DNA of 64,000 nucleotides, taken from an uncultured Gemmatimonadales bacterium (lineage in GTDB: Bacteria; Gemmatimonadota; Gemmatimonadetes; Gemmatimonadales; Gemmatimonadaceae). Under the pieces are notes generated by a model. That model was not told where the DNA came from. It saw nothing but the letters and a program-made list of their open reading frames with translations, and made no database searches. The stretch lies in contig CAWISX010000019.1 in the NCBI GenBank assembly GCA_963838855.1, forward strand, positions 57,494 to 121,493. The letters run 5' to 3'. A program made the position numbers and the translations under genes. Of this stretch, positions 12,480 through 42,622 are shown piece by piece (position 1 is the first letter of the stretch; every line of letters begins with the position of its first letter).

Positions 12480-12509
12480 CGCGAGCCAGGCGGCCCCACG
12501 CTCCCGGCC

Positions 12510-13435: not shown

Positions 13436-14628
13436 GCCCCGAGGCCCGCTAGCGGAGTGCCGGTGACCCGCGCAACGAACGCGAGCGTCTCCCGGGCAAC
13501 GCGATCCCAATTGTAGTGAGATTCGACCGCGCGACGCCCCGCGCAACCCATGGCCTGCCGGCGGCCCGCATCGTCCAACAGCATCCGCATGGCTTGGGCG
13601 ACCGCATCAACATCCGTCGGAGGCACTACTAGGCCGGTCTCCCGATCACGGACTGCGGAGCGTACGCCGCCGGAATCGCCCGCAATGGTCGGAACGCCAC
13701 TCGCCGCAGCTTCCACGAAGGAGATGCCGAAGCCTTCCACATCGATCTCTTTGTCAATCCGAGACAGCCCTACGTACACAGTCGATGTCGCATAGGTGTC
13801 GGCCACCTCGGCATCCGTCATCCCTCCAGCGAACACCACGCGATCCGCGATCCCGAGTTGCGCTGCCAACGCCCGCAGTCGCGATTCATCCGGGCCGTCA
13901 CCCACGACGGCGTACCGGATCGTCGGGTGCGATGCGACAAGCCGCGCCACCGCGCGCAGCGCAATGTCTTGGCCTTTGTGCGGGACCAACCGCGCCACGG
14001 TCAGCAGCAGTGGGTCGCCGCCAATACCCCACCGTCGTCGGATCACCCCGGAGTCACGCTCCCGCGAGAAAAACGTGGGGTCAGTTCCAAGGTCGATCGC
14101 CGCGACTGGGGGTGGACGGCGCACTCCGACTTGCCGCATCACATCGACGACGAGATTGGCTGAATAAGTTGAAATTGCGACGACACCCGCCGCGTCTGAA
14201 AAGATCCGTCGGGCCACCCACCGCTTCATTACGTTGCGCGCCGCTTTGCGCCGCTCTCGTAGCACGTCGCCCCCGTACACGTACACAACGTAGGGTACCC
14301 CCCGCCGGCGATGTGCCCACCAAACGGGATAGCCAGCCGGACGCACGTTTCCGCAATGCAGCACGTCACCCGCGCTGACCTGCGCCGCAACAGATGTGGC
14401 CCAGCGCGCCGCGTTGGGAAACGTCTTCGCGCCACGCATTGTGAACGGTTGTCGCAGGATCTCGTACCGCTCGCCCGCGTCGAACGCCGACGCCCGCGAA
14501 GCCTCCTCGGAAGCGACTGTCGAAACTACGGTCACTTCAGGCCGAATCCGGCGACACAGCTCGACGTGCCGTCGCGCCATCCCGCCACCAACCGGCGGGT
14601 AGTCCTGTGTCACGAAGACGTGGCGCAC
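13432..14628 (-). CDS. glycosyltransferase family 4 (GT-B, GT1/GT4 type)
   Basis: The C-terminal half carries the EGFGISFVEAAASGVPTIA motif. I chose the start at GTG 14628 (VRHVFVTQDYPPVGGG). The Arg-rich 160-aa extension in the track ORF is rejected. Confidence 0.85.
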   Translation of the reverse strand: MRHVFVTQDYPPVGGGMARRHVELCRRIRPEVTVVSTVASEEASRASAFDAGERYEILRQPFTMRGAKTFPNAARWATSVAAQVSAGDVLHCGNVRPAGYPVWWAHRRRGVPYVVYVYGGDVLRERRKAARNVMKRWVARRIFSDAAGVVAISTYSANLVVDVMRQVGVRRPPPVAAIDLGTDPTFFSRERDSGVIRRRWGIGGDPLLLTVARLVPHKGQDIALRAVARLVASHPTIRYAVVGDGPDESRLRALAAQLGIADRVVFAGGMTDAEVADTYATSTVYVGLSRIDKEIDVEGFGISFVEAAASGVPTIAGDSGGVRSAVRDRETGLVVPPTDVDAVAQAMRMLLDDAGRRQAMGCAGRRAVESHYNWDRVARETLAFVARVTGTPLAGLGA

Positions 14629-15590
14629 GGATTCTCCCAAGGCCGACCGCTGAGCAGAAAGGGCAGCCGGGCGTCGTACGTGTGATGCTCGCGCGCAAAT
14701 GCCTCGCCTGCCGCTCTTAGGCGAGCCCGCTGCTCGGGTTGGCGAAGCAGCGCGACAAGTCGGGTGGCGCAATCTTCGGCGTCGGCATACCACACGCAGT
14801 GCATGCCATCCGTGAGCATTCGGTCGAGTCCTGGCGTCCGTTGGCCTAGATAACATGCGCCGGCAAGCAGGGACATCCAGACGCGGTCGGACGCATATGT
14901 GGTCGCGCCCGCGGCGCGCGATGGGTTCACGCCAAGCACGACATCCGCGCTCGAGCACACGGCCGCGAACGCGCGTCCTTCGACCTTGCGGCCGGACCGA
15001 ACGAGTGTCGAATCTCTGCCGCGCCCCCAGCCCGGGCCCCACACATGCACGGGCATACCCGCGCGCTCGGCGACGTGCCGTAGAAAGGCGCCTCTCTCCG
15101 GATCGTACGCCGACCCAATGAATGCCGCCTCCGAAGCAAATCGCGGCTCCCTGGGAACGGGAACGATTTCACGCGCACCGGCCGCCGGGAGGAACGCTGC
15201 CGACTCGACGTGCGCGCGCCACTCTGCCTCGAATCCGGTCACGAAAAACGTGGATGCGAGCCGACCGACCGAGATGACGTGTGCAACGTCGGGCCGGTCC
15301 GTATCACGGTACCATTGTGGGTCGTGATACCACATTGCGTTGGCATGTCCCGCGATAATGCGCGCGACGGTCGCGGTCTCTAGTCCTAGGCACTTTGAAA
15401 GAAACACAAAGTCCGGGCGGAACCGCTCGGCGCGGCGGAGCGCCAGTTGTTGCGAGATCCGATGGCCCACGAGCCGCCGCGTCCGGCGGTCATCGAACAG
15501 TGAAGTCTCATGTCCTGCGCGGCGCAGAGCCCGCTCGACCGACGCCTCCATGCGCCAGGGATTGCGATGCCCGATCAGCAGCACGCGCAA
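14610..15590 (-). CDS. putative glycosyltransferase (CgeB-like / DUF3880-type)
   Basis: 326-aa ORF embedded between two glycosyltransferase genes. It begins MRVLLIGHRNPW and the overall pattern resembles CgeB-like proteins. Family assignment is from memory only. Confidence 0.5.
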   Translation of the reverse strand: MRVLLIGHRNPWRMEASVERALRRAGHETSLFDDRRTRRLVGHRISQQLALRRAERFRPDFVFLSKCLGLETATVARIIAGHANAMWYHDPQWYRDTDRPDVAHVISVGRLASTFFVTGFEAEWRAHVESAAFLPAAGAREIVPVPREPRFASEAAFIGSAYDPERGAFLRHVAERAGMPVHVWGPGWGRGRDSTLVRSGRKVEGRAFAAVCSSADVVLGVNPSRAAGATTYASDRVWMSLLAGACYLGQRTPGLDRMLTDGMHCVWYADAEDCATRLVALLRQPEQRARLRAAGEAFAREHHTYDARLPFLLSGRPWENPCATSS

Positions 15591-15602: not shown

Positions 15603-16703
15603 TCACGCCGACCAGCGGGTCCGGTCTCGTCCGGACTCCGTCGCTCGCTGCATCCCGTCGAGCATCGCACGCTCCGAGTAGTCCCGCGCGACGCGCACGC
15701 GCCCGGCGTTGCCCATGGCCTCGCGCTGCGCATCGTTCGCCAGAAGCTCGGCCACGACTGAGGCCGTGGCTGTAGCGTCGCCAGGCGGCACCGATACACC
15801 CGTGATGCCGTCGGCAACGTACCGCTGCGCCACGCTTCCCCGATCCACAAGCACGGGCGTGCGCATCGCCATGAAATCCAGGGCCGCGAAACCGGCTGAA
15901 TCCTCACCGGCAACCACCCATCCCAGCACGCCGGCTCGCAATACCGCCAGGTCATCATCGCGCTCGCCCACATGGCTGACGGCCCGCGTGATGCCAAGTG
16001 CCGCGGCGTGCATGCGCAAATCCTCGTTGCCTGAGTCCGGCCCTATCAGAACGAGATGCAGCTCGGGGTGCCGAGGCGCCAGCAATCCCATAGTCCGCAA
16101 AACCGTCGCTGCCCGCTGCTTGCCGGACGGATCGTATACGCAGACGATGACTCGCGACCCCGGCGCGGCACCGAGGCTGGCCAGAGGAGCAGCCCGCAAT
16201 TCGTCGTAACGCTCTACGTCGACGCCAAGGTCCGCGACAACGGTCTCGCGCACCCGCTCGACTCCGAGCCCAGCCGCGGCTTGCACTTCGGCCTCCGAGG
16301 CGAAGACGAATCCGCCCGTCGCGAGCCGCAGCGCGAGCCTAGTCGCACGCCCCGCGACGAATTGCCCGCCAGCCGGTGTCCGTCGCACCACGCCCCCGCG
16401 GCCAGCGAGTCGCACTGCGAGCGAGACAGCAAGCTGCTCCCGCTCGGTGTGGACGAACACGGTCTCGATGAACCGCTCCGTCAGGATGTGTTGGAGACGC
16501 CACCCCTCGACAGGAAGAGGCGCATTCGGGTCCAAAGCGATGACATCGCACCCTTCCGCGGCCGCGCGGGCCCCGACTGCGCCATCCGGCGGGCAAACGT
16601 ACGTGACCTGATAGCCCCGCTCCGCCAACCCTCGGCCGGCCGCCGCAAAGACGCGCGCAGCACCTGTGGAGCTACGCGAGGAATAGTAGAACAGGACTCG
16701 CAC
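15603..16703 (-). CDS. glycosyltransferase family 1/4
   Basis: 366-aa ORF with a GT-B layout. MRVLFYYSSRSSTGAARV forms the N-terminal Rossmann half. The C-terminal half reads ...LGWVVAGEDSAGFAALDFMAMRTPVL. Confidence 0.8.
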   Translation of the reverse strand: MRVLFYYSSRSSTGAARVFAAAGRGLAERGYQVTYVCPPDGAVGARAAAEGCDVIALDPNAPLPVEGWRLQHILTERFIETVFVHTEREQLAVSLAVRLAGRGGVVRRTPAGGQFVAGRATRLALRLATGGFVFASEAEVQAAAGLGVERVRETVVADLGVDVERYDELRAAPLASLGAAPGSRVIVCVYDPSGKQRAATVLRTMGLLAPRHPELHLVLIGPDSGNEDLRMHAAALGITRAVSHVGERDDDLAVLRAGVLGWVVAGEDSAGFAALDFMAMRTPVLVDRGSVAQRYVADGITGVSVPPGDATATASVVAELLANDAQREAMGNAGRVRVARDYSERAMLDGMQRATESGRDRTRWSA

Positions 16704-18547
16704 TACGACACCGTGGCGCCGTCTTCCACCTCGCGGAACTGCAAGGAATACAGTCGATGATACACGCCGCGTTCGGCGAGCAGCTCAGTGTGAGTACCAC
16801 GCTCCACGATACGTCCACGATCCAGCACCAGGATCACGTCCGCATGACTCACCGTCGACAAGCGGTGGGCGATGACGAAGACCGTCCGCCCAGCCAATAG
16901 GCGATCGATGGCTTCCTGCACTAGACGCTCGGATTCGGCGTCGAGTGAAGATGTGGCTTCGTCGAGAATTAGGATGGGCGGGTCTGTGAGCAGCGCGCGC
17001 GCGATGGCAATTCGTTGGCGTTGTCCGCCGGAGAGCCGCGTGCCGCGTTCGCCCAGCACCGTGTCGTATCCGTTCGGCAAGTCCCGAATGAAGGCGTCAG
17101 CGTTGGCCGCGCTGGCCGCCGCGGCGACTTGCTCGTCGGTGTACCGCCCCGAGCCACCGTAGACAATGTTGCTTCGAACGGTGTCGTTGAACAGGACGGT
17201 GTCCTGGCTGACGATGCCTGTCAGCGCGCGCAGAGCCGGCAGGGCAATCTCGCGTGTGTCGACACCGGCCAACACAATGCGGCCGTGTGTTGGCTCGGCA
17301 AATCGCGGGATCAGATCGACTAGCGTGCTCTTTCCTGCGCCGCTTGGTCCCACGAGCGCCACGATCTCGCCGCGCCGCGCCGTAAACGACACGTTCGAGA
17401 GAACCGGCTCGCCTGCCTCCCCAGACTCCCCCGGGTAGGCGAAAGACACCTCCTCGAACTCTATTGCTTCGAAGTTCGGATCGGCGGCGCGCGTGCCACG
17501 ATCTAGAGCGGCCTCGGTAGGCCTGTCCAATATCTCGAACACCCTTTCCGCCGACGCCAGCGATGCCTGAGCGACCGTAGGCAGTTGAGCGAGCTGCTTG
17601 AGCGGCTGCAGCAGCCTGAGAACAACGCTGAGAAACACGATTAGCTGTGAGCCTTGCAGCGTACCGTCTACGAGCACCTGCCGCGCACCGACCCAGAGCA
17701 GGGCGACGGCCACGACCGTTCCCAGCATCTCCGTGATCGGCTGCGACAGAAGCGCGATTCGCGTGAGCCGTAGCATGCCGCGCGAGTACTGGCCGCTGGC
17801 CTCGCGGAAACGTCCCTCTTCGTAGGCTTCGCCCCGAAAAGCCTTCACTAGCCGCATCCCCGCCACGACTTCTTGCAGCACGCTCAGCATCTCCCCGTAA
17901 TCGTTGCGCAACCGGCGATGGCCCTTGCGCAGCCGCCGGAGCAGCGGCTGCAGCATGCCTGTCACTGCGGGAGCGATCACCAGAGCTACCAGAGTGAGCC
18001 GCCACGACACCGCGAAGAGAAAGGCAACGTAGGCGACGATGAGCGTGAGGCTCTGCAACGCGGACGTGACTACTTGCGTGATCAGCGCTTTTGTTTGGTC
18101 GGTGTCCGTCAGCACGCGAGCCAGAATCTGGCCCGCCTTCGTCTGGGTGAAGTACCCGAGCGGGAGGCGCTGCAGGTGCGCATACACTGCGTTCCGCATG
18201 TCGCGCGTGACGTATTCCTGCAGCTGGGCCCCAAGCTGGCCGCTCCACCAGACGAAAAGGTTCTTGAGCGTGACGGTCACGAGAATGATGCCGATGACCG
18301 TCTCCAGGGATCCCATCTTGTCGTGTGGATCGAGCAGAGATCCGATCGTCGCACGCAGCAGGTGGGTCAGCCATCCCTGGCCCAATGGCAGCAGCGTCGG
18401 GAGCCCGAACAACGCGTTGAGAAAGGGAATCAGCAGCGCGAACGAGTACGCGTCGAGCGCGGCGCTGATGGCGCTGCACAGCACAGCCCCGGCCATCCGC
18501 CAGGCATGCGGACGCAGGAACGGCAGAAGCCTACGGTATGCGCCCAT
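16703..18547 (-). CDS. msbA: ABC transporter permease/ATPase fusion, MsbA-like lipid exporter
   Basis: 614 aa with an N-terminal 6-TM domain. Walker A GPSGAGKST, signature LSGGQRQRIAIARAL, Walker B ILILDEATSSLD. It heads the glycosyltransferase/LpxL cluster. Confidence 0.85.
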   Translation of the reverse strand: MGAYRRLLPFLRPHAWRMAGAVLCSAISAALDAYSFALLIPFLNALFGLPTLLPLGQGWLTHLLRATIGSLLDPHDKMGSLETVIGIILVTVTLKNLFVWWSGQLGAQLQEYVTRDMRNAVYAHLQRLPLGYFTQTKAGQILARVLTDTDQTKALITQVVTSALQSLTLIVAYVAFLFAVSWRLTLVALVIAPAVTGMLQPLLRRLRKGHRRLRNDYGEMLSVLQEVVAGMRLVKAFRGEAYEEGRFREASGQYSRGMLRLTRIALLSQPITEMLGTVVAVALLWVGARQVLVDGTLQGSQLIVFLSVVLRLLQPLKQLAQLPTVAQASLASAERVFEILDRPTEAALDRGTRAADPNFEAIEFEEVSFAYPGESGEAGEPVLSNVSFTARRGEIVALVGPSGAGKSTLVDLIPRFAEPTHGRIVLAGVDTREIALPALRALTGIVSQDTVLFNDTVRSNIVYGGSGRYTDEQVAAAASAANADAFIRDLPNGYDTVLGERGTRLSGGQRQRIAIARALLTDPPILILDEATSSLDAESERLVQEAIDRLLAGRTVFVIAHRLSTVSHADVILVLDRGRIVERGTHTELLAERGVYHRLYSLQFREVEDGATVS

Positions 18548-18590
18548 TCAGCACGCCCTGACGCGGGGACTCACCGCGCCGCGCCTCGCG

Positions 18591-20162
18591 TCACCGGGGC
18601 GTCAGGAGCGCAACCGGGAGGATAACCTCTTCGGGAGTGACGCCCCCATGCAGGAACGAGCCGCGGTAGCGGCTTTGGTATTCGCGCAACTTCGTCGGAT
18701 ACACAAAAAACGAGTCGCCAGCGGCCAGCAGCGTGTTCGCACCGAGCCCGCGACGCGGCAGCAGGAGCTGCTCCTCGCTCGGAAAAAGGAGCGCCTGCTC
18801 TGGGCGCTCGGCCCGCACATCCTCCCCGAACTTGTAGCGCAGATTGGCAGTGGCGTCCCGCTTTGCGTACACGGTGGCCGGAGTCTGACAGTGAATCGAC
18901 CCATGATCGCTCGTGAGAAGCACCGAGACTTTGCGCCGCGCCGCCTCGGTGAGCACCGCCAGCAGCGCCGAGCGTTGAAACCATTGGCGGGTGAGCTGAC
19001 GAAGTGCGATCTCGTCGCGCGCTACCTCATATAGGATCGCCGACTCGCTGCGTCCGTGCGTGAGCAAATCGATGAAGTTGAATACGAACGCTGTCACGCC
19101 GTCAGGAGCGATTGCACCGTTCACTCTCCGTTCGAGCTCGTCGGAGTCCGCCGACGTAGAGATCTTGTGGTACCGGACCGGCACCCTATGACCCAACTCG
19201 GTGAGATGCGCGTCGAGCAGTTCGCGCTCATGTCCGTTGAGTGTCTCGTCATCCCGCGCGGCCGGCCCCCCGGCCCACCAGTCCGGAAAACGGGCGGCGA
19301 TCTCACCAGGGAATAGCCCGCTGAAAAGAGCGTTCCGCGAGTACGGCGTCGCGGTCGGCAGGATCGAAAAGTGGTGAGTTACCTCGACGTCAAAAAGCGG
19401 GGCGAGCAATGGCTCGACGGCAAGCCACTGGTCGAGACGCAGGCAGTCCACCACGATGAACAGCGCAGCACGATCGCGTTGCAGCAACGGAAGCAGAAAC
19501 TCGCCAATCACGTCAACCGAAAGCGGCGGCCGGTCGTTATCCAGCTTCGCGAGCCATGCCGGGTAGGACGTCAACATGAACGAGGCAAACTCGCGGTGCA
19601 TGTCGGCATACAGACCGCGCAGAGACTCGTACAGGCCCGTCTCGCCCGCGGCGGCGAGCTCAACGTCCCAGTACATGTACTCGCCGAATCGCTCGACCCA
19701 GCCTCGCCAATCCAGCGGGCGTGCCCTTTCGAGCTCGATCGCCCGGAATCGCTCGACGAATCGTCGCGCGAGCGCCTGTTGGCGGATCCGCGGGCCGTCG
19801 AGAATCCGCCGAATTACCGTCAGAACCTGGCGCGGATTGATCGGCTTGACGAGATAGTCACGAACGTTGGCGCCGATCGCTTCCGTCAGCGTGGCGTCCT
19901 GGTCGCTCTTGGTAACCATGACCACCGGGACGTTGGGCGACAACTCGCGAAACTCGCGAAAGGCCTCGAGCCCGCGCTTGCCCGGCATTTGCTCGTCCAG
20001 GAGAACGACATCGAAGGCTCGGTGACGCAGGAGCTCCGTCGCGTCATCCGCGTTGCTCGTCCACTCGACGTCATACCCATTCTCGCGCAGGAAAATCCGG
20101 TGCGATTCGAGCAGGTCGGCCTCGTCGTCAACCCAAAGCACGGACTGCCGAGAGGCGCTCAT
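18591..20162 (-). CDS. response regulator receiver fused to a PglZ / alkaline-phosphatase-superfamily domain (PorX-like)
   Basis: The receiver domain reads VLWVDDEADLLESHRIFLRENGYDVEW...VVLLDEQMPGKRGLE...VVMVTKS. It is followed by ~400 aa ending in ...LLTSDHGSIH...GGVTPEEVILPVALL, typical of PglZ. The start is ATG 20162 or 20177; the track ORF extension to 20414 is rejected. Confidence 0.8.
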   Translation of the reverse strand: MSASRQSVLWVDDEADLLESHRIFLRENGYDVEWTSNADDATELLRHRAFDVVLLDEQMPGKRGLEAFREFRELSPNVPVVMVTKSDQDATLTEAIGANVRDYLVKPINPRQVLTVIRRILDGPRIRQQALARRFVERFRAIELERARPLDWRGWVERFGEYMYWDVELAAAGETGLYESLRGLYADMHREFASFMLTSYPAWLAKLDNDRPPLSVDVIGEFLLPLLQRDRAALFIVVDCLRLDQWLAVEPLLAPLFDVEVTHHFSILPTATPYSRNALFSGLFPGEIAARFPDWWAGGPAARDDETLNGHERELLDAHLTELGHRVPVRYHKISTSADSDELERRVNGAIAPDGVTAFVFNFIDLLTHGRSESAILYEVARDEIALRQLTRQWFQRSALLAVLTEAARRKVSVLLTSDHGSIHCQTPATVYAKRDATANLRYKFGEDVRAERPEQALLFPSEEQLLLPRRGLGANTLLAAGDSFFVYPTKLREYQSRYRGSFLHGGVTPEEVILPVALLTPR

Positions 20163-20300
20163 CGTAGAAGGGCCCATCGAGTGCAGAATGTACCGGCGCG
20201 CAGTAACTTCTTGAAGGTGTTCGGCAACCCCCCACCGTACGCCATTCCCGCGCCAACGTTCCTCTTTCCAGCCCTGGCGGCCCGGGCAGCGCGTGGACAA

Positions 20301-20636
20301 TTGGGTGGCGATCGCGAACTGGCGCTGGCAACATTCGTGGCCGCGCGGTTGGCCGCGGGCACGACCGGGCCAACTGCCCTGCCGCTGGCCGTCCGAGCTG
20401 AACGCGCGCAGCACGCGCGCGCGTATTTCGCCGCGCTCTCGCTTCCTTCCGCGGTCCGCGCTCCCTTCGCGCGGCTTGCTGACGCGGCCGCGGGCACCGA
20501 CGCTCCTGCCGTCGCGAAGGCACTCGGGATAGTGCTGGACTCGGTGGCACGGTCGCTCAACGCCGCGGCGCGAGCCGAGCTCGAAACGTTGTGCGCAACG
20601 CTGGATGGCACGAAGGGCGCTAGCGCGACTCGCTGA
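20301..20636 (+). CDS. possible small Ala-rich hypothetical protein (start undetermined: 20211, 20217, 20301 or 20337)
   Basis: This is the tail of track ORF 19371-20636 that lies in the otherwise empty ~500-nt gap between the PorX-like gene and yebC. Nearly every codon ends in G/C, as real genes here do. No motif recognised. Confidence 0.25.
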   Translation: MGGDRELALATFVAARLAAGTTGPTALPLAVRAERAQHARAYFAALSLPSAVRAPFARLADAAAGTDAPAVAKALGIVLDSVARSLNAAARAELETLCATLDGTKGASATR

Positions 20637-32879: not shown

Positions 32880-33924
32880 GTGAGTCGTATTCTCGGAATT
32901 GAGACGTCGTGCGATGAGACGTCAGCTGCCGTCATAGACGAGGATGACGGCGGGACAACGATTCGTTCGCTGGTAATACTGTCGCAGGACCGTCACGCGA
33001 TATTTGGGGGTGTCGTGCCCGAGATCGCCTCGCGCGCCCATCTCACAGCGATTGCTCCCGTTGTAGCCCGAGCCCTGACGGATGCCGAGCTATTGCCGAG
33101 TGAGGTCGATGCCGTGGCGGTAACGTCGGCACCAGGCCTAGTGGGCGCACTCCTCGTTGGCGTGAGCTACGCCAAGGGCCTGGCGTTCGTGACGGGCAAG
33201 CCAGTGGTGTCGGTGCACCACATGGAAGGCCATTCTTTTCGCGGCCTCGCTAGAGCACCGGGACGCCATCCCGCCTTTTACAGCCCTCCTGGTATCGGGC
33301 GGACACACGCTCCTGCTGGACGTCGAGGCCTGGGGAGCGTACCGCCTGCTCGGTAGCACACGGGACGACGCTGCTGGCGAGGCTTTCGACAAGGTCGGAA
33401 AGCTCATGGGGCTGCCATATCCAGGCGGGCCCCACGTCGAGCGCCTTGCCGCCCAGGGCGATCCTGCACGAGCGCGCTTTACGCGACCGATGCTGCGCTC
33501 CGGCTCGCGCCCAGGCGACGATGACTACTACGACGTTTCATTCAGCGGGCTAAAGACCGCTGTCTTCTACGCCGTGCGCGATGCGCCGACGTCCGGGCTA
33601 TCGCTGGCGGACATTGCGCGCGGATTCCAGGATGCGCTGGTAGACACGCTAGTTGAGAAGACTCGGCGCGCAGTGCACGCGTACCGCCGCTCGCGGGTGA
33701 TCCTGGGCGGTGGAGTTGCATGTAATGGCGCTCTCGTGGACGCGATGCGCGCGCGGCTGAGCCCGCAAAACGTCGCAGTCTTCTCGCCGAGCCCGCGTCT
33801 TGCGACGGACAACGCCGCCATGATCGCGCGCGCGGGACTTTTCCACCTCATGCGCGGCAACACCGCCGGGCTCGATCTCAACGCATTCGCCTCCCTACCC
33901 ATTCCAGGGACCTTGGCGGCATGA
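32880..33924 (+). CDS. tsaD: tRNA N6-adenosine threonylcarbamoyltransferase, apparent frameshift near 33234
   Basis: Contains ILGIETSCDETSAAV and VHHMEGH. Track ORF 32880-33356 then goes out of frame. LFAASLEHRDAIPPFTALLVSGGHTLLLDVEAWGAYRLLGSTRDDAAGEAFDKVGKLMGLPYPGGP is readable in the frame of track ORF 33406-33924. Confidence 0.9.
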
Positions 33925-34785: not shown

Positions 34786-34842
34786 GCCAATCACGATTGG
34801 CGACGGCGCATTCACGCTGCAATCACGATCGCTTAGCATACT
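34786..34842 (+). promoter_or_regulatory. promoter-like region of peptide gene A with three phased direct repeats (putative SARP boxes)
   Basis: AATCACGAT (34789-97), ATTCACGCT (34810-18) and AATCACGAT (34821-29). Then 7 nt, then the -10-like CATACT (34837-42). GGAGG sits at 34885-89 and ATG at 34897. Confidence 0.55.
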
Positions 34843-34896: not shown

Positions 34897-35043
34897 ATGT
34901 CGAAGCCACAGGATTTCGTCCGAATTGAGCTGACGAAGGCGCAGCAGGAGAACGTGAAAGCGGCGACGGGCAAGGAAGCGGAAGCCATCGAGCTAACGAT
35001 GCAGGAGCTCGAAGAGCGCATTGCGCCGCTCCGCCAACCCTAG
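34897..35043 (+). CDS. 48-aa acidic helical peptide, paralog A (candidate substrate/signal peptide of the adjacent M50 locus)
   Basis: Own translation: MSKPQDFVRIELTKAQQENVKAATGKEAEAIELTMQELEERIAPLRQP. GGAGG-N7-ATG is present. It is too short for the ORF track. It shares 39 of 47 residues with paralog B, and 8 of the codon differences are synonymous. Confidence 0.75.
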   Translation: MSKPQDFVRIELTKAQQENVKAATGKEAEAIELTMQELEERIAPLRQP

Positions 35044-35076: not shown

Positions 35077-35133
35077 GCCAATCACGATTCGCGGCCCGCT
35101 ATTCACGCTCCATTCACGATCAATCAGTATAGT
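35077..35133 (+). promoter_or_regulatory. promoter-like region of peptide gene B (duplicate of 34786-34842)
   Basis: AATCACGAT (35080-88), ATTCACGCT (35101-09) and ATTCACGAT (35112-20). Then 7 nt, then TATAGT (35128-33). GGAGG sits at 35177-81 and ATG at 35189. The 21 and 11 nt box spacing is the same as in copy A. Confidence 0.6.
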
Positions 35134-35188: not shown

Positions 35189-35332
35189 ATGTCGAAGCCA
35201 CAGGAGCACGTCCGCATTGAGCTCACGAAGGCGCAGCAGGAGAGCGTGAAGGCCGCGACGGGCAAGGAAGCCGACGTAATCGAGCTGACGGTACAGGAGC
35301 TCGAAGAGCGCATTGCTCCGTTCCGGGTGTAA
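35189..35332 (+). CDS. 47-aa acidic helical peptide, paralog B
   Basis: MSKPQEHVRIELTKAQQESVKAATGKEADVIELTVQELEERIAPFRV, the C-terminal part of track ORF 35021-35332. I placed the start at 35189 from the SD sequence and the alignment with paralog A. Confidence 0.75.
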   Translation: MSKPQEHVRIELTKAQQESVKAATGKEADVIELTVQELEERIAPFRV

Positions 35333-35394: not shown

Positions 35395-35428
35395 CGCTGG
35401 GGGCCCGAATTGATCCAGGCCCCCAGCG
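35395..35428. terminator. hairpin between the convergent peptide genes and the M50 operon (possible bidirectional terminator)
   Basis: 11-bp perfect stem CGCTGGGGGCC / GGCCCCCAGCG with a 12-nt loop. There is no clean U-tract on either side. Confidence 0.4.
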
Positions 35429-35463: not shown

Positions 35464-37530
35464 CTACAAGAAGAGATCGGATCGGAGGCGCGCCCGCAGC
35501 GACCACCAGAGGGCGCCAAGCACCGTGGATCGTGCGAGCTCGACGCGGGCCTCCCCGGTGACGCCCAGCCGCCACGCGTCGCCCTGCGGAAGCCGAGCGC
35601 GGATCTCAACATCTCCATTGGACGTCGCCCGGCCGGCCGCAGCCACAGTGAGTACTCGCGTCTGCACGGGGCGCGCGACGTTCGCGTATGAGACAACGTG
35701 TACTGTCTGTCCCGGCTGCACCGCCCCTGCTCCCGGCCCTGTCAGTGTGATGCGCAACTCCAAGCTGTCTGGGTCACCCAACATGAGCACCGCCTCCCCT
35801 GGCGCCACGCGCCGCCCGACAAGTGCCTCGGGACGCGGTGTTACGACTTCGCCAGCGGCGAGCGCTCTCACGGTCAGTGCATCAATGTGGCGTCGTGCGG
35901 CCGCCGCGCGCGTTGATGCGCTCGCACCTGCCGCGTCCATCTCACCAGCGGCTCCCGCGTTGCCAGTCGCGAGCGCGCGCGTGGCGCTGTCTCCGAGCGA
36001 GTCTACATCATGCTCGTCGGCCACTAACTCTTGCATTGCGCGCGGATCGCTCAAGCGCAACAGCGGCGCGCCGGCGCCGACGGTCTCTCCCTCGCGGACC
36101 AGCATCTCCCTCACGATGCCTCCCTCCGGCGCGTCCACCACCACGCCGTGCGCACTTGCGGCTCGAAACACGCCAGTGGCCGTTATCGGCCACGGGATCA
36201 CTGCCAGGAGTACCACGAGCGTGGCCGCAGCCCCGGCGATAACAAGACGGCGACGACCGCGCGGGGCTAACCTACGCACGCGATCCGACCGAGCGCGCAG
36301 TGCCTTCCACGCTGCTCGACTCCAATTCACAGCCTTTTGGCGGGACATGACGGCAATGACACCGATCACCATCAGCGCGCCAAACAGCCCCCACACGCGC
36401 CATCCCACACGAACGACGAACATCGCCGTTGCGGTCAGCACCAAGCTGACGTAGGCAGTCGCCAGCGCACCGTAAATGAGAAAGACTTGCCGTTCGCGCG
36501 CAGAGGCCGGAGGCTCGGGCGCGTCGAGTCCCGTAAGCTGCCGCTGGACCCACCATCCGAAATGCGCGATCGCCCGCTGTCGCAGATTCGGAATCTCGAG
36601 CCAATCGCTGAGCGCGAAATAGCCGTCCAGAGGCAGCAGCGGATTCGCGTTGGCGAGAACCGTTGTCATGCCTCCGACGACCATCGCGACCAACGCCGCT
36701 TGCGAGATTAGCGTGTCCGGCCGCGCCACCCACCACGTGAGGGCCGCCAGCAATGCGATGAGGACCTGCACCCAAGATCCGGCGGCCGTCACCCACAGCC
36801 GCGCACGGCGCTCGGGAAAGCTCCACGCATCGTTGACATTGCAGTAAAACGCGGGCTGGAAGTACACGAGCATGAAGCCCAGCTCGTGCACTTCGCCCCC
36901 GAAATACTTGCACGCGAAGCCGTGTCCGAGCTCGTGCAACAGGACGACGGTTAGAGTGACGACCCATACGAGCACCGCACGTCCCAGCGTGAGGTCGCTG
37001 AGCGACACGAACGATGCGACTGCGTGCGAGAACGCCGACCACGACGACACGACGATGGCAACGTACATCGCCATCGCCACCACCGAGCCTGCCAGGAATG
37101 CCGGGGTAAAGCACCACGCGAGCCATGGCATGAGTCGAGCCATCCAACGGTCTGGATCGCCCATGGACCATCGCATTCGCAGTAGCTCCCCGCGGAACAG
37201 CGAACGCCGGCGATTTCGCTCCGCGCGCAAGCGCTCGAGCTGCATTGTCGAGCGCTCGGCAAGTGTCCGCTCCAAGAGTCCCAATCGCGAACACGTGCCC
37301 GCAAAGCGCTCCACCGCTGCCTCGGACACCGAGAGACCCTCGGCCGCGAGCGCGCGCGCGATTTCGGCCGGGGTGCGCGAGCCGTCAAATGCGCGCAGCA
37401 CGCGCGCCTCGGCGGGACGCATGCGAAAGTATTTCTTCGTGTCAGGATCCTTGACGACGAAGTGCGCCTCGCCCCGAACGACCTGCTCCACCACGACCAC
37501 GCCGGCCCGAGCTCGCGGATAGCGCGGCAT
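35464..37530 (-). CDS. fusion protein: PqqD/RRE-like N-terminal domain + M50 (site-2 protease class) intramembrane metalloprotease + C-terminal HlyD/membrane-fusion-like domain
   Basis: 688-aa ORF. The N-terminus HFVVKDPDTKKYFRMRPAEARVLRAFDGSRTPAEIARALAAEGLSVSEAAVERFAGTCSRLGLLE follows the PqqD pattern. The zinc site is LLHELGHGFACKYFGG, and the second S2P motif is NPLLPLDGYF, in a multi-TM core. The C-terminal ~250 aa carries lipoyl-like and barrel segments (GIVREMLVREGETVGAGAPLLRL ... VRALAAGEVV). Confidence 0.85.
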   Translation of the reverse strand: MPRYPRARAGVVVVEQVVRGEAHFVVKDPDTKKYFRMRPAEARVLRAFDGSRTPAEIARALAAEGLSVSEAAVERFAGTCSRLGLLERTLAERSTMQLERLRAERNRRRSLFRGELLRMRWSMGDPDRWMARLMPWLAWCFTPAFLAGSVVAMAMYVAIVVSSWSAFSHAVASFVSLSDLTLGRAVLVWVVTLTVVLLHELGHGFACKYFGGEVHELGFMLVYFQPAFYCNVNDAWSFPERRARLWVTAAGSWVQVLIALLAALTWWVARPDTLISQAALVAMVVGGMTTVLANANPLLPLDGYFALSDWLEIPNLRQRAIAHFGWWVQRQLTGLDAPEPPASARERQVFLIYGALATAYVSLVLTATAMFVVRVGWRVWGLFGALMVIGVIAVMSRQKAVNWSRAAWKALRARSDRVRRLAPRGRRRLVIAGAAATLVVLLAVIPWPITATGVFRAASAHGVVVDAPEGGIVREMLVREGETVGAGAPLLRLSDPRAMQELVADEHDVDSLGDSATRALATGNAGAAGEMDAAGASASTRAAAARRHIDALTVRALAAGEVVTPRPEALVGRRVAPGEAVLMLGDPDSLELRITLTGPGAGAVQPGQTVHVVSYANVARPVQTRVLTVAAAGRATSNGDVEIRARLPQGDAWRLGVTGEARVELARSTVLGALWWSLRARLRSDLFL

Positions 37531-38563: not shown

Positions 38564-40465
38564 TCAGGATGATAGCCTCCACCACAGAAGTCGAGCCGTA
38601 CGCACCGGCGCGCGCAGCAGGCGCCCGGCCAACGAGGCTGGCGCGGTCAACACCCGCGCCGCCGCCGCCATTCCTGGACGCAGCCCACCATCAATGTTCG
38701 GCACGCGCGCTCGAACCGGAAATGCGACGTTCCCCGCGACGTCGGCAGCGGAATCCGACGGTAAGCTGCCTATGGCAACGACATGTCCGACGAGCGTGCG
38801 CTGCGGCGCCGCATCCGCGCGCGCGTGCACTTCCTGCCCCAACCGGACGCGGGCGAGATCTTGCTCGTCGACTCCGAAATCCAGTTCCAGCGTATCTGTG
38901 CGTCCCACCAATACCACCGGATCGCCAGCCTCGACCCGCATGCCCACGCGCTCCTCGGGCCGAGGTGTCAGAACAACGCCGTCGACCGGAGATCGAACGA
39001 GAGTGAAGCGAAGCTGGTCATCTGCCAACGCGGCCACGCGACGCCTGGATTCTCCGCGCAACCGCGCGACGCGCTCCTGCGCAGCGTCGCCGTGGCTGGC
39101 CGCCAACTCCGCCTCACGGTCATCGGCGCCCGCATCGGCCAAGGCGGCGTCGCGCTGGGCCCGTAGCTCCGCGTCCGATAGCTGTGCGAGCGGCGCACCC
39201 CGCGCCACGCGTTGGCCCTCATCGACGAAGATCCGTTGAATCACCCCGCCGACTTGCGCGCGCGCCTCCGCACCGCCCAATTGCCGGAACGTTGCGTGCT
39301 TACCGTCAACACGCAGCGGCCATTGCAGCAGCGTGACCGCGCCCAAAACGACAACGGCAGCCACACCATACGCAGTGCGGCGACGGCGCGGCACGCCAAG
39401 CAGCGCCCTCCACTTGAGGCTGAAGGCCCCAAGCGTGTTGGCGAGAGGGACTTGTTCGTATAGCTGCGCATTGCGAATTGCGACCGCGGCCTGCGCTGCG
39501 AGAATGGCCGCGACCTCTCTCTGCCGCGGGGCAGCGAAATCGACGCGCGCCGCCTCGAAAAACAAAATGCCGACAATCCCTTCTTCGTCCTTGAGCGGCA
39601 TGTACAATCCGCTTTCGACGCCCGCGCGGGCCAGGTCGTCGCCGAAGATCTGAAGGAAGATGCGCTCGGCATCGGACGCCGCCTCGGTGCGGTCTGAGAG
39701 ATAGAATGCCTCGCCGGTTCCAGCCGCCCACGCACCGCGTGCCGCAAGGTCCTGCACCGCCGGATCTGCCGCGTCCACAGTGTCGGCACCCGCAACTGCG
39801 CGTATATCGCAGACACCGCCGTCGTACAAACCTATGGCGGCGCGGTCGAAGGCCATTGCGCGCGCGGCTAAGTTGACGGCCGCGCGCAACACTCGGTCGA
39901 GGTCGAGCGTAGACGTGATCTCGCGACCCATCTCCGCAAGCAGCGCGAAGTCCGCCGACCTGTCGGCGTCGCGCATGCGATTGGCCGTGCCGAAAGCAAG
40001 GCCAGCACTCGCTGCAAACGAAGCGAGTATCGCCTCGTCCGCCGCGTCAAACGGTGCAGCGCCATCTTCCTCGCGCGCGACGCGGAGTGCACCGATCGAC
40101 TCCCCGCGATCCGGCAATGCGACCACGAGGGTCGTGCCGTCGCCATTTGGCAATGCCGTCACCTCGGCCGCCGGAAGTGTCACCCCCGCTAGATGCTTTG
40201 CGTCACGGCCGGCCGCGACCTGGCACACCATTCCGCCTGCGGTGCGCAGCCACAGCGATCCTGCGTCTGCCTGTACGGCGGTCAACGCGCCTCCAAGCGC
40301 CGCTGACGAGAGCTCGTCAGGCTCCACAACGCCCGCGAGCTCACCGATGACCGTTCCAAGCGTTGTGAGTCGATCGACCCAGTTGCCGACCGCTATGCCG
40401 TCGCTCCGAGCCGCCACTCGAGGTGCCTCACCGATTCGCGGGGTGTGAAGGTGCCGTGTCGGCAA
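38564..40465 (-). CDS. tandem-GAF + TM + HlyD-like membrane fusion protein
   Basis: 633-aa ORF. Two GAF-like blocks are present (...GSLWLRTAGGMVCQVAAG...IGALRVARE... and ...REITSTLDLDRVLRAAVNLAARAMAFDRAAIGLY...IVGILFFEA...AIRNAQLYEQ). One TM helix follows (AYGVAAVVVLGAVTLLQW), then the HlyD pattern GGVIQRIFVDEGQRVARGAPLAQL, a coiled coil, and VRSPVDGVVLTP. The start (TTG 40465 or GTG 40417) is uncertain. Confidence 0.8.
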   Translation of the reverse strand: MPTRHLHTPRIGEAPRVAARSDGIAVGNWVDRLTTLGTVIGELAGVVEPDELSSAALGGALTAVQADAGSLWLRTAGGMVCQVAAGRDAKHLAGVTLPAAEVTALPNGDGTTLVVALPDRGESIGALRVAREEDGAAPFDAADEAILASFAASAGLAFGTANRMRDADRSADFALLAEMGREITSTLDLDRVLRAAVNLAARAMAFDRAAIGLYDGGVCDIRAVAGADTVDAADPAVQDLAARGAWAAGTGEAFYLSDRTEAASDAERIFLQIFGDDLARAGVESGLYMPLKDEEGIVGILFFEAARVDFAAPRQREVAAILAAQAAVAIRNAQLYEQVPLANTLGAFSLKWRALLGVPRRRRTAYGVAAVVVLGAVTLLQWPLRVDGKHATFRQLGGAEARAQVGGVIQRIFVDEGQRVARGAPLAQLSDAELRAQRDAALADAGADDREAELAASHGDAAQERVARLRGESRRRVAALADDQLRFTLVRSPVDGVVLTPRPEERVGMRVEAGDPVVLVGRTDTLELDFGVDEQDLARVRLGQEVHARADAAPQRTLVGHVVAIGSLPSDSAADVAGNVAFPVRARVPNIDGGLRPGMAAAARVLTAPASLAGRLLRAPVRTARLLWWRLSS

Positions 40466-40585
40466 CCATGCGGCAATACTGGTCCCGCCCGCCTGTCTGT
40501 CAATAAATCATCAAGGATCTGTCATGGTCTGTTGGGATTGAGGAAGCAAACTTATCTTTGGCCGGGTCCAATTGGTCGGGGGTTC

Positions 40586-42622
40586 GTGCCGCGCTTCGGC
40601 TTGACGCTTTGCGGTCGTCTGACTTTGACCGTGGATGGCGCCGTTCCGGCCGTTCCCGTCGGCGCCAAGGCGCTCGCTTTATTGGCGTACCTGGTGCTGG
40701 AGCCAGGGCCGCACGGGCGTGACGCGCTAACAGCGCTACTGTGGGGGGACTTCCCCGAGCCGCAAGCCAAAGCTTCCCTTCGTCAAGCTCTCACGCGCCT
40801 CCGTCAGGTGCTTGGCGACGCACTGGAGATCAGCCGAAACTCCGTGGCGCTCGTCGCCCCAGTTGATTGCGACGTAGCTCCCTTCGTCAGCCCTGCATCA
40901 GGCCAGGCTGGACCAAGCGACGTGCAGTATGCACTACGCGTGGACGTCCACCGTTTTCTGGAAGGCCTGCCGATCCGGCAGTGCTCAGCGTTCGACGAAT
41001 GGGCGGCCGCAACGAGACGCACACTTGTCCGGGGTTACACGGCGGCTCTAGCCGAAATGGCCAGTAATGGGCTGGCGCAACTCGATTGGCAGGCGGCCGC
41101 AAGTGCGGCCGACCGTTGGCGCTCTGCTGACCCGCTGTCAGACGAGGCAGCACTCGCGGCAATGGAAGCGCGCCTCCTCTCCGGAGACTACGATGGCCCG
41201 CTCAGGATCTTCCAGGAGCACGTCGCTGGCCTGACCGACGAAGGTCGACGTCCAGGTCGTGCAGTGCAGGCCCTGGCCGAACAGGTGCGACGGCAAGGCC
41301 CCGGCGGCGGTGACGCACGCAATCTGCCTGCGGCTGAGGCCACCCGCCCGCTTCGCGCCCGATTGCGGTGCCGCGAACGTGAGTGGGCTGCGCTGCAATC
41401 CGCATGGCGCGCCACCGCGATCGGGACCGCGCGCGTGGTGCTGGTTGAGGGCGAGCTCGGTGCCGGAAAGACGCGATTGGCCAGTGACTTCGCCGCGTGG
41501 GTGACGTCGCACGGCGGGTGCGTGCTCAAGGGTCGTGGGACTGAGGCCGGCGCGGCAATTCCATTCGCCCTCATATCCGAAACCCTGCGCTCTGGCCTCG
41601 ATGCTCCGGGGGTTGCTGGCACGGATGGCCAGTGGCTCGCCGAGATCGCGCGATTCGTCCCCGAGCTTCGTCAGCGCCTACCCGGAGTGCCGGCAGCAGC
41701 CCCGCCTGCGCCCGCAGAGGCTTGGCGCCTATTCGAGAGCGTTGCGCAAATGCTCGGGGCAATCGCGAGCGAGCAGCCCGTATTCGTTCTGCTCGATGAT
41801 CTTCGCTGGTCGGACGGCGACAGTGCGGCGTTGCTGCAATTTCTGGTTGACCGCTTGGCTCAGACACCCGTCCTGTGGTGCGCCACGTTGACACCTGGCA
41901 CGGACGATCGCGGCTCGCGCACCGGACGGCTGACTCGCGCGCTTCGGGAGGCACCGCACGCCCAAGTGCTCCGTCCCGCACGGCTCGGCGAAGCCGACGT
42001 CGCGGCAATGCTCGAGGAACTCGTGTGCGTATCCGCAACGGCTGGGCTGCAGCGCCTCGCTCGACGCATTCACGAGCAGAGCGCCGGCAACCCTGGCTAT
42101 GTCACCGCCCTCGCGGAGGCCCTGATCGCACGCGGCGGGATCGTGCGGACCCCGGATGGGCAGTGGGCACTCTCCCCGGCCGCCGACGGGGACAGCTTCG
42201 AGGGGTCGCTGGCGCCAGGAGACTTGGCTGTGGTGCGCGCACCAATTTTGGAGCGCGTTGAGCGCCTTCGAGACGACGCACGCGCCATTCTCGTTACGAT
42301 TGCAATGGCAGACGGCGAGCGGTGCGATCCCGACGTGCTGTCGCACGTCCACGGCATGTCGCGATTGCGTGCTGCCGCGTTGGCCGAGGGGCTGCTGGAC
42401 CGCGGGCTTGTTGCCGAAATCGACAATGGTTATCAGTGCGCGCACCCCGTTATTGCGCAGGTGGTCCGTGAGGGAGTCAGTGCGTCTTGGCGGCGCGCGG
42501 CGAAGCAGACGCTCGCGGAAGTGCTGTCCGGGCCGAAGCAGCCGGACGGGTCTCGCCACCAGAGCGTCGGATCGGTCCCGTCCGCGCCGCGCACGCATCG
42601 CGGTCTCCAACCGCGACCGTAG
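40586..42622 (+). CDS. SARP-family transcriptional activator (OmpR-type wHTH + BTAD) fused to a P-loop STAND/AAA_16 NTPase and a helical C-terminal domain
   Basis: The wHTH region reads FGLTLCGRLTLTVDG...KALALLAYLVLEPGPHGRDALTALLWGD...SLRQALTRLRQVLG. The BTAD-like region includes DVHRFLEG...AMEARLLSGDYDGPLRIFQEH. Walker A is VLVEGELGAGKTRL and Walker B is VFVLLDDLRWSD. A GTG start at 40586 is proposed; the track ORF starts at 40445. Confidence 0.8.
   Translation: MPRFGLTLCGRLTLTVDGAVPAVPVGAKALALLAYLVLEPGPHGRDALTALLWGDFPEPQAKASLRQALTRLRQVLGDALEISRNSVALVAPVDCDVAPFVSPASGQAGPSDVQYALRVDVHRFLEGLPIRQCSAFDEWAAATRRTLVRGYTAALAEMASNGLAQLDWQAAASAADRWRSADPLSDEAALAAMEARLLSGDYDGPLRIFQEHVAGLTDEGRRPGRAVQALAEQVRRQGPGGGDARNLPAAEATRPLRARLRCREREWAALQSAWRATAIGTARVVLVEGELGAGKTRLASDFAAWVTSHGGCVLKGRGTEAGAAIPFALISETLRSGLDAPGVAGTDGQWLAEIARFVPELRQRLPGVPAAAPPAPAEAWRLFESVAQMLGAIASEQPVFVLLDDLRWSDGDSAALLQFLVDRLAQTPVLWCATLTPGTDDRGSRTGRLTRALREAPHAQVLRPARLGEADVAAMLEELVCVSATAGLQRLARRIHEQSAGNPGYVTALAEALIARGGIVRTPDGQWALSPAADGDSFEGSLAPGDLAVVRAPILERVERLRDDARAILVTIAMADGERCDPDVLSHVHGMSRLRAAALAEGLLDRGLVAEIDNGYQCAHPVIAQVVREGVSASWRRAAKQTLAEVLSGPKQPDGSRHQSVGSVPSAPRTHRGLQPRP

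Follow-up and report, generated by a model that had tools for sequence, protein, structure and literature searches.

An RRE-bearing M50 protease fused to a periplasmic adaptor domain, and its predicted peptide secretion module in Gemmatimonadota

Introduction

What would a bacterium gain from a single polypeptide in which a peptide-docking domain, an intramembrane protease and a periplasmic adaptor are joined end to end? The question is raised by a gene of an uncultured Gemmatimonadales bacterium (Gemmatimonadaceae), which lies in a stretch of 64,000 nucleotides (hereafter the window; GenBank assembly GCA_963838855.1, contig CAWISX010000019.1, positions 57,494 to 121,493 of the forward strand) and encodes a protein of 688 aa. 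The domain structure of this protein is confirmed by the current study: a cytoplasmic recognition element for peptides that are made ribosomally and then modified post-translationally (RiPPs; RiPP recognition element, RRE) of the PqqD fold, a six-helix M50 protease core, a seventh transmembrane (TM) helix and a periplasmic membrane fusion protein (MFP) domain of the HlyD type. We judge it moderately probable that this fusion protein forms the core of a leader-dependent secretion module, in which small ribosomal peptides are processed and exported.

Results

Architecture of the fusion protein

The gene begins with ATG, and its frame is unbroken over 688 codons with a coding-type GC content by codon position. 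Gene calling was scored on the GC at each codon position, since calling on third positions alone (GC3) failed at the GC3 of only ~0.75 found here. In the AlphaFold2 (AF2) model of residues 1-105 (pLDDT 83.5; a separate full-length model has pLDDT 80) the N-terminal domain, which includes the segment EAHFVVKDPDTKK...SRLGLLE (residues 21-87), forms the winged helix-turn-helix of an RRE, with three beta-strands (residues 12-18, 21-28 and 33-37) followed by three alpha-helices (39-47, 54-63 and 70-83). When residues 1-105 were compared with the Protein Data Bank (PDB) by Foldseek, the top 7 matches were all RREs (TbiB1, 5v1v; TfuB1, 6jx3; PqqD, 5sxy), with a probability of 1.0 and TM-scores of 0.60/0.69; the structures of TbiB1 and TfuB1 hold leader peptides, and CteB, TglI and MibB stood lower in the list. 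Fold comparison was needed because PDB searches by sequence were non-significant, the single N-terminal domain sequence giving no significant match and its profile giving TfuB1 only at E=0.14.

The RRE is followed by the membrane core of an M50 or site-2 protease (S2P). HELGH (residues 199-203) ends TM2 (hydrophobic segment 180-203) and NPLLPLDG (residues 296-303) ends TM4, after the TM segment 274-296; these are the HExxH motif in a TM helix and the second motif NxxPxxxxDG with the Asp that serves as third zinc ligand. A beta-hairpin (214-230) is modelled between TM2 and TM3. In an alignment of 33 full-length homologues H199, E200, H203, N296, P297, L298, P300, L301, D302 and G303 are invariant. 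The best NCBIfam match of the whole protein was NF041824, 'daptide biosynthesis intramembrane metalloprotease' (residues 8-405, 228.1 bits, E=1.8e-67), and NF058609, the YydH/LiaK epipeptide protease, matched residues 156-313 (E=8e-12, 45 bits against a cutoff of 225). The best match of the M50 core in a PDB sequence search, mjS2P (3b4r), was non-significant at E=0.66. With the full-length model as Foldseek query there were only MFP structures among the 50 matches listed, and therefore no independent fold evidence for the M50 core.

The MFP structures MacA, MexA, AcrA and ZneB match the C-terminal ~250 aa (E~1e-13, probability 1.0). Pfam HlyD_3 covers residues 553-650 at 41.8 bits, above its gathering score of 22.2, and HlyD_D23 covers residues 449-632. 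Behind its own N-terminal TM anchor (429-447), the domain runs from a lipoyl half through an alpha-hairpin (496-521 and 525-550) to the other lipoyl half, a beta-barrel and a C-terminal helix, facing the periplasm as is expected of an MFP. Longer relatives have their lipoyl and beta-barrel Pfam matches much further apart, a sign that their hairpin may be longer, as it is among true MFPs.

Topology was assessed from hydropathy, which gives seven TM helices, and from the positive-inside rule. The N-terminal 132 aa carry 28 K/R, and the loop ahead of the last TM helix (399-428) carries 11 K/R and 1 D/E; this distribution therefore predicts that the RRE is inside and the HlyD domain outside, and that TM2 and TM4 hold both zinc motifs at their cytoplasmic ends. 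The sequence-only reading of this locus, which gave no strand, had already proposed a PqqD/RRE-like domain, an M50 protease and a HlyD-like domain after further TM segments, with the RRE in and the HlyD part out. The three domain assignments hold, and so does the orientation as predicted: no unrelated fold emerged for the N-terminal domain and the reverse topology was not predicted. That reading had overlooked the likely substrates, the partner MFPs and the regulator.

Likely precursor peptides beside the fusion gene

Two small genes, each preceded by a GGAGG Shine-Dalgarno sequence, lie just beyond the 3' end of the fusion gene and are convergent to it. They were found by querying the window with open reading frames (ORFs) of ~48 aa from the loci of relatives. 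The two products (segments ...IELTMQELEERIAPLRQP in peptide 1 and ...IELTVQELEERIAPFRV in peptide 2) share an invariant leader motif, ...ELxVxELEERIAP, and differ in their hypervariable tails, LRQP and FRV. A hidden Markov model (HMM) of the peptides found 132 small ORFs in 66 of 85 loci, with 1-6 per locus and always beside the module. When 128 unique peptides are aligned, information content peaks at 4.3 bits for E(-8), L(-7), E(-6) and P(-1), is ~4 bits for R(-4), I(-3) and A(-2), and falls to ~1 bit at +1. ELEERIAP itself is present in 76 of the 128, with close variants in the remainder, L(-7) and P(-1) being invariant. The tails measure 3-24 aa (median 7), weakly favour K/R/T at +2 and I/L/V at +3, and have diverse C-terminal residues, with no invariant Thr and no long aliphatic core. 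Among the Gemmatimonadota peptides, conservation of the N-terminal 44 aa far exceeds that of the tail. The motif alone is retained by a divergent subclass (MSKHDEQSR...VELGVEELEEKIAPMKI); this subclass and the peptides of a distant relative's locus, L086, keep just the segment (V/I)EELEE(R/K)IAP. The peptides match no Pfam or NCBIfam family.

Several further observations concern these peptides. Within the Gemmatimonadota leader there is a quasi-repeat, with vRIELTpEQ occupying -36..-28 and aVELSVEEL occupying -15..-7, which could represent two recognition segments. In L020 (3319-4256) four tandem precursor genes have near-identical tails of 12-15 aa, K/RLA(A/S/V)NH(N/S)ETLLV..., and are a case of amplified cargo, unlike the diversified tails of most loci. 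A second recurrent gene order, shared by the window, places up to six peptide genes 3' of the M50-HlyD gene on the opposite strand (L007, 10138-12515; L042, 3619-4666; L068, 10881-12205; L006, 5073-5715), and these loci include a recurring tail, ...SIDxSIGTFF or QIGTFF.

A conserved module without a pump

The fusion gene is the last in a minus-strand operon, after the genes of two further MFPs, which we call GAF-HlyD and HlyD2; the stop of HlyD2 overlaps the start of the fusion gene. HlyD2 has a single N-terminal hydrophobic anchor (residues 15-33). GAF-HlyD, the start codon of which is uncertain, has ~365 cytoplasmic residues with one or more GAF domains, one TM helix (366-386) and a periplasmic MFP part. 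The MFP parts of the fusion protein and of GAF-HlyD are paralogues (31% identity, E=4e-18), and no similarity between the former and HlyD2 was detectable. A relative is encoded in 342 species-representative genomes, the best 80 of which are all Gemmatimonadota. Of 84 Gemmatimonadota loci, 83 have HlyD2 adjacent, 78 have GAF-HlyD (the misses fall at contig ends) and 60 have a divergent regulator, and the downstream neighbours vary between loci. On long contigs the canonical order is the divergent regulator, two ORFs of ~48 aa, GAF-HlyD, HlyD and RRE-M50-HlyD; relative to this order the peptide genes of the window are relocated and inverted. The conserved module is composed of a regulator of the SARP type (Streptomyces antibiotic regulatory protein), the peptides, GAF-HlyD, HlyD and RRE-M50-HlyD, without a tailoring enzyme or a pump. 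In one locus, L001, three MacB_PCD/FtsX-type permease genes flank the module (1-2016, 12100-14805 and 16368-19097); they are not conserved in other loci.

The family extends far beyond Gemmatimonadota. An exhaustive search with residues 1-430 returned 11,121 representatives with a limit of E<=1e-3; at E<=1e-30 the number was 2,266, which is our count of family size in clusters at 50% identity. Most of the top 150 members are 680-950 aa long, and M50 and HlyD domains were both present in 7 of 7 long members sampled. The named members belong to Blastocatellia (Acidobacteriota) and Planctomycetota and carry the database label of a HlyD/RND adaptor subunit only. The same GAF-HlyD, HlyD, RRE-M50-HlyD operon is found in L091, the locus of a 90%-identity cluster-mate of the Blastocatellia protein P0149, and in a Planctomycetota locus (L089) RRE-M50-HlyD is followed by a GAF protein. 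The most compact relative (L088, 30% identity) encodes consecutively GAF-HlyD, RRE-M50-HlyD, a short MFP and an outer membrane efflux protein (OEP/TolC, PF02321), with no pump between. Elsewhere the cargo changes: L086 encodes seven peptides in tandem, which have the minimal leader LKIEELEERIAP and cores of 35-60 aa rich in N/P/G, and a PCMT-type methyltransferase comes after them; L090 has four radical-SAM genes around RRE-M50-HlyD and a precursor, ...LEVEELEERVAT-RPWLCYMPVP, in which the leader motif seen in the window stands before a W/C/Y-rich core. These varied contexts suggest that the fusion is a shared leader-peptidase and exporter module for different peptide cargoes. A contig-end ORF of tandem GIDEQRANPL decapeptide repeats was also seen in L091 (11359-11547, minus).

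Promoter repeats and the regulator

A triple TCACG repeat stands upstream of each peptide gene, on the same strand. This element occurs exactly twice in the window, compared with 0.04 expected from shuffles, and exact copies are present in 19 other loci, all in the region between the regulator and the peptide genes. SARP sites are direct repeats at one- or two-turn spacing (11 or 21-22 bp) just upstream of a -10-like hexamer. The BTAD domain of the divergent regulator and the direct repeats at helical-turn spacing upstream of the peptide genes agree with such a pairing, and the boxes are candidate target sites of the regulator. A consensus scan around the peptide genes revealed neither an intrinsic terminator nor a sigma-70 promoter, the latter as expected for activator-dependent promoters. 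Pfam reported no OmpR-type winged helix-turn-helix match in the regulator. The listed starts of GAF-HlyD (TTG at 40465, minus) and of the regulator (GTG at 40445, plus) overlap within 40445-40600 of the window, so at least one of them is probably wrong, and the true start of the regulator is probably near 40589. A perfect TTGACA hexamer at ~40497-40502 (minus) may be the -35 element of the MFP operon. Between the convergent peptide 2 and fusion genes lies an inverted repeat, possibly a bidirectional terminator, which the consensus scan skipped because it has no T-run.

Coordinates of these features are collected in Table 1. Elsewhere in the window, the nearest ATP-binding cassette (ABC) exporter, which is MsbA-like, stands beside two glycosyltransferase genes and a response-regulator-PglZ protein; the exporter and the PglZ protein are both ~17 kb away, and nothing links them to the module. 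A TsaD/Kae1-type tRNA t6A gene is split into two plus-strand ORFs in different frames, 32880-33356 (matching positions 2-100 of Pfam TsaD) and 33406-33924 (matching 148-263), which represents a frameshift, a pseudogene or an assembly error.

Table 1 Features of the RRE-M50-MFP locus and its surroundings, in window coordinates
Feature	Coordinates	Strand	Basis or remark
RRE-M50-MFP fusion gene	35464..37530	minus	ORF, domain matches, AF2 and Foldseek, >1,600 full-length homologues
Cytoplasmic RRE/PqqD-fold domain, predicted leader-binding, residues ~8-88	37267..37509	minus	AF2, Foldseek, sub-threshold Pfam PqqD
Six-TM M50/S2P core, residues ~126-400	36331..37155	minus	Invariant motifs, Pfam M50, NF041824, NF058609, hydropathy, AF2
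Seventh TM helix, anchor of the MFP part, residues 429-447	36190..36246	minus	Hydropathy peak 2.44 and positive-inside count
Periplasmic MFP (HlyD) domain, residues 448-688	35467..36189	minus	Pfam HlyD_3, Foldseek, paralogy with GAF-HlyD
Precursor peptide 1, 48 aa, leader MSKPQDFVRIELTKAQQENVKAATGKEAEAIELTMQELEERIAP, tail LRQP	34897..35043	plus	tblastn, peptide HMM, conservation break after AP
Precursor peptide 2, 47 aa, leader MSKPQEHVRIELTKAQQESVKAATGKEADVIELTVQELEERIAP, tail FRV	35189..35332	plus	tblastn, peptide HMM, conservation break after AP
Triple repeat TCACG-N16-TCACG-N6-TCACG, ~70 bp upstream of peptide 1	34791..34827	plus	Candidate SARP-regulator boxes
Second triple TCACG repeat, ~70 bp upstream of peptide 2 start	35082..35118	plus	
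HlyD2, RND_mfp-type periplasmic adaptor, 351 aa	37530..38585	minus	TIGR01730, 161 bits, above cutoff 94.9
GAF-HlyD	38564..40465	minus	Pfam GAF and HlyD_D23, TM helix
SARP/AfsR-like regulator (BTAD and AAA_16 ATPase), divergent	40445..42622	plus	Pfam BTAD and AAA_16
GC-rich inverted repeat, 16-nt arms, 2-nt spacer, between peptide 2 and fusion genes	35395..35428	undefined	
MsbA-like ABC exporter / response-regulator-PglZ region	16703-18547 and 18591-20414	both minus	

Discussion

The results allow us to propose a series of linked steps for this module. The SARP-type activator, with its BTAD and AAA_16 domains, would bind the triple TCACG boxes and switch on both peptide genes. The RRE of the fusion protein would then dock the acidic leader ...EL-x-V-x-ELEERIAP of its cognate precursor, as the invariant leader motif of the peptides encoded next door indirectly suggests. 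On the cytoplasmic side of the membrane, the M50 active site would cut directly after the invariant Ala-Pro, as in daptide leaders, to release the tails LRQP and FRV, which would travel outwards via an assembly of the fused MFP domain, GAF-HlyD and HlyD2, docked to a TolC-like channel encoded elsewhere. The sequence-only reading had suggested that recognition, cleavage and hand-over to a periplasmic conduit sit in one protein, and this logic fits the context of leader peptides next door, two co-conserved MFPs and an OEP gene in a relative.

The pairing of an RRE with an S2P core has a characterised precedent. MpaP is an 'RRE-dependent intramembrane peptidase' that removes the daptide leader; daptide precursors carry a conserved ELExMEAP, the Pro of which is leader position -1, and both RRE binding and RRE-dependent processing require L(-7) and M(-4) (doi 10.1101/2023.03.08.531785). 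The RRE-S2P pair and the leader motif are therefore of a known kind, and ELEERIAP is a variant of ELExMEAP. The likeness to MpaP/DapP covers the N-terminal RRE and the M50 core, over which the HMM aligned from end to end (residues 8-405), and extends to cognate precursors, which are multicopy and have the leader motif ELE-x-x-x-A-P with Pro(-1) as its last residue. In contrast to MpaP/DapP, the fusion protein is extended by a further TM helix and by a periplasmic MFP domain of 240 aa; the module of the window is without daptide tailoring enzymes and a dedicated ABC transporter; the tails, 3-24 aa long, lack a C-terminal Thr or an aliphatic helix; and the hosts are diderm Gemmatimonadota, Acidobacteriota and Planctomycetota, whereas daptide clusters are reported from Actinomycetota and Bacillota and have separate ABC transporters (doi 10.1101/2023.03.08.531785).

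Other M50 proteases of RiPP systems are more distant. EpeP (YydH) matures a small RiPP and has been proposed to serve in both cleavage and export, and the pearlin pathways have TglG/TmoG, M50 enzymes bound to the membrane, by which a conserved scaffold peptide is relieved of a very small moiety at its C-terminus (PMC10885120). The NF058609 match shows a weak but significant likeness to EpeP/LiaK as an M50 intramembrane protease, but the similarity is absent from the RRE and MFP parts, the EpeP substrate is epimerised by a radical-SAM enzyme and its host is a monoderm. TglG/TmoG are carboxypeptidases that act on an amino acid added by a peptide aminoacyl-tRNA ligase (PEARL), whereas the module here has no PEARL/LanB-like gene. 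A pearlin-type scaffold was rejected.

Peptidase-containing ABC transporters (PCATs) working with an MFP and TolC (CvaAB-TolC, ComAB) likewise cut a leader at the inner membrane and pass the cargo to a conduit of an MFP and an outer membrane factor (OMF); L(-12), E(-8) and L(-7) are common to the leader here and to the double-glycine consensus given in the tripartite pump review (PMC8277102). The protease is different, however, being an RRE-guided M50 metalloprotease rather than a C39 cysteine protease; its fusion partner is the MFP and not the pump, an ABC ATPase is absent, and the leader ends in Ala-Pro, not Gly-Gly. A PCAT or double-glycine system was rejected, since the module has no C39 or ABC domain and the leader ends in AP instead of GG, GA or GS. 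Proteases of the Eep/RseP type process the peptide pheromones of Gram-positive bacteria (SHP/XIP, cAD1), which are short C-terminal signals of small precursors. Eep has PDZ domains, cleaves hydrophobic segments resembling signal peptides and relies on a separate ABC transporter for export. Short hypervariable C-terminal products beside a dedicated transcription regulator are common to both systems, whereas the protein here has an RRE instead of PDZ domains, and the likeness seen between the proteins goes no further than the M50 core.

The sequence-only reading regarded an RRE on a site-2 protease that also carries an MFP domain as an uncharacterised arrangement. The first half of that judgement does not stand, since MpaP carries an RRE on a site-2 protease and EpeP/YydH and TglG/TmoG are further M50 proteases of RiPP systems; the second half appears to hold. 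The MFP fusion, the leader motif and Gemmatimonadota RiPPs of such a type were not found in the searchable literature, papers on graspetides, cyanobacterial bacteriocins and pamtides make no mention of the fusion, and the available part of the Chem Rev review of tripartite pumps contains no M50-MFP fusion (PMC8277102). The MFP-fused form and its peptide family thus appear undescribed, the RRE-S2P pair being already known.

Several results weigh against the fusion protein as the core of a peptide secretion module. The RRE and the M50 core score just below their family thresholds in the fusion protein itself: Pfam PqqD (PF05402) gives residues 25-84 E=1.3e-3 and 19.5 bits against a gathering score of 23.4, and Peptidase_M50 (PF02163) gives residues 191-266 25.9 bits against 27.2. 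Among 10 relatives scanned, the PqqD score was also sub-threshold in two (21.8 and 22.1 bits), and that of Peptidase_M50 exceeded its threshold in seven (27.3-31.2 bits). The NF041824 score is likewise below the equivalog cutoff of 300 bits. A tblastn search of the window with the OEP of L088, which is a weak test, brought up no OMF gene, and no ABC, resistance-nodulation-division (RND) or major facilitator superfamily (MFS) pump is conserved in the module across 84 loci. There are no TCACG boxes in the window upstream of the MFP operon or in the intergenic region between the regulator and GAF-HlyD, and the peptide genes are convergent to the operon, not upstream of it, so that co-regulation of the two is not evident. 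Tails of 3-4 residues would be unusually small as secreted products, and tailoring enzymes may be encoded away from the module.

The absence of a conserved pump is the chief weakness of the proposal, and it motivates the principal rival explanation. Here the RRE-M50 part is the leader peptidase and the fused MFP is an ordinary adaptor that recruits an OMF and an energised transporter encoded elsewhere, such as an ABC pump of the MacB type, so that cleavage and transport are carried out by different inner membrane proteins. The MFPs characterised so far all act with an ABC, RND or MFS partner (PMC8277102), and daptide clusters, as noted above, employ separate transporters. These genomes abound in MacB-type pumps, and in L001 the module is flanked by MacB_PCD/FtsX genes, while no energy-coupling domain was matched by Pfam or NCBIfam in any of the three MFP proteins. 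Set against this, no transporter is conserved beside the module in the 84 loci, where the downstream neighbours vary, and the most compact relative has an OEP gene after its MFPs with no pump between. We consider an unlinked pump possible, though rather unlikely.

We regard as improbable an explanation by regulated proteolysis, in which the small proteins are cytoplasmic regulators, the conserved 44-aa part is functional (with the SARP regulator or the GAF protein as a possible target), the RRE-M50 protein trims the C-terminus as a switch, and the MFP domains sense or anchor in the periplasm like the PDZ domains of RseP. The strong conservation of those 44 aa relative to the tail in Gemmatimonadota, tails as short as 3 aa, and a dedicated regulator and a GAF sensor domain within the module would all suit such a switch. 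Outside Gemmatimonadota, however, the conserved part shrinks to ~12 aa, with cores of 35-60 aa or precursors in radical-SAM RiPP clusters, which marks it as a leader signature and not a functional domain. The motif is, moreover, homologous to the daptide leader, and three co-conserved MFPs and the OEP gene of L088 are hard to explain without transport.

That the locus is a daptide cluster, or one of another known RiPP class, and the protein simply MpaP/DapP, is very improbable. NF041824 is the best NCBIfam match and the leader motifs are alike, but the score of 228 bits is below 300, the hosts are Gemmatimonadota and not Actinomycetota or Bacillota, the module has no oxidative decarboxylase (MpaB/C), aminotransferase or methyltransferase, and the tails have neither the invariant C-terminal Thr nor a long aliphatic core. 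With the class-defining enzymes and the C-terminal Thr missing, a daptide cluster was rejected as far as sequence allows; the locus lacks the marks of a daptide cluster, yet its protein most likely works in the manner of MpaP, as a leader peptidase to which a periplasmic adaptor is attached. An artefactual fusion of separate RRE-M50 and HlyD genes by gene calling or assembly has a negligible chance: some database entries of ~400 aa do lack the HlyD part, but many short entries among the HlyD-less relatives, which were checked for monoderm origin, are fragments (several of 710-763-aa proteins), and the unbroken frame, the more than 1,600 full-length homologues across independent assemblies and the 342 species genomes with a relative refute it.

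Returning to the leader-dependent secretion module, its products are most likely, if speculatively, extracellular signalling peptides; a signalling role is preferred to an antibiotic one because there are no tailoring enzymes, the tails are very short and hypervariable, and a dedicated regulator is present. A stronger version would make the module a pump-less machine that cleaves and secretes, in which the S2P core is the gate under a hetero-oligomeric ring of three MFPs, one of them bearing GAF, docked to TolC; unmodified, strain-specific signals of 3-12 residues (here LRQP and FRV) would close an autoinduction loop through the SARP regulator, a form of peptide quorum sensing native to the diderm soil phyla Gemmatimonadota and Acidobacteriota. 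We put this forward tentatively, as a version that is itself on the unlikely side.

The findings change how a very large family may be viewed. Its members, in at least three diderm phyla dominant in soil, are labelled merely 'HlyD/RND adaptor' or 'hypothetical' and can be re-read as RRE-guided leader peptidases joined to an adaptor. Searches for the leader signature ...ELxVxELEERIAP can bring to light thousands of small peptide genes that lack annotation, some of them in radical-SAM RiPP clusters. To our knowledge, every known tripartite system has an energised pump; in a module without one, either the protease core serves as the inner membrane component or an unlinked pump is recruited. The short hypervariable tails, together with a SARP-type activator of their own, make peptide signalling testable in soil bacteria that are poorly studied and largely uncultured.

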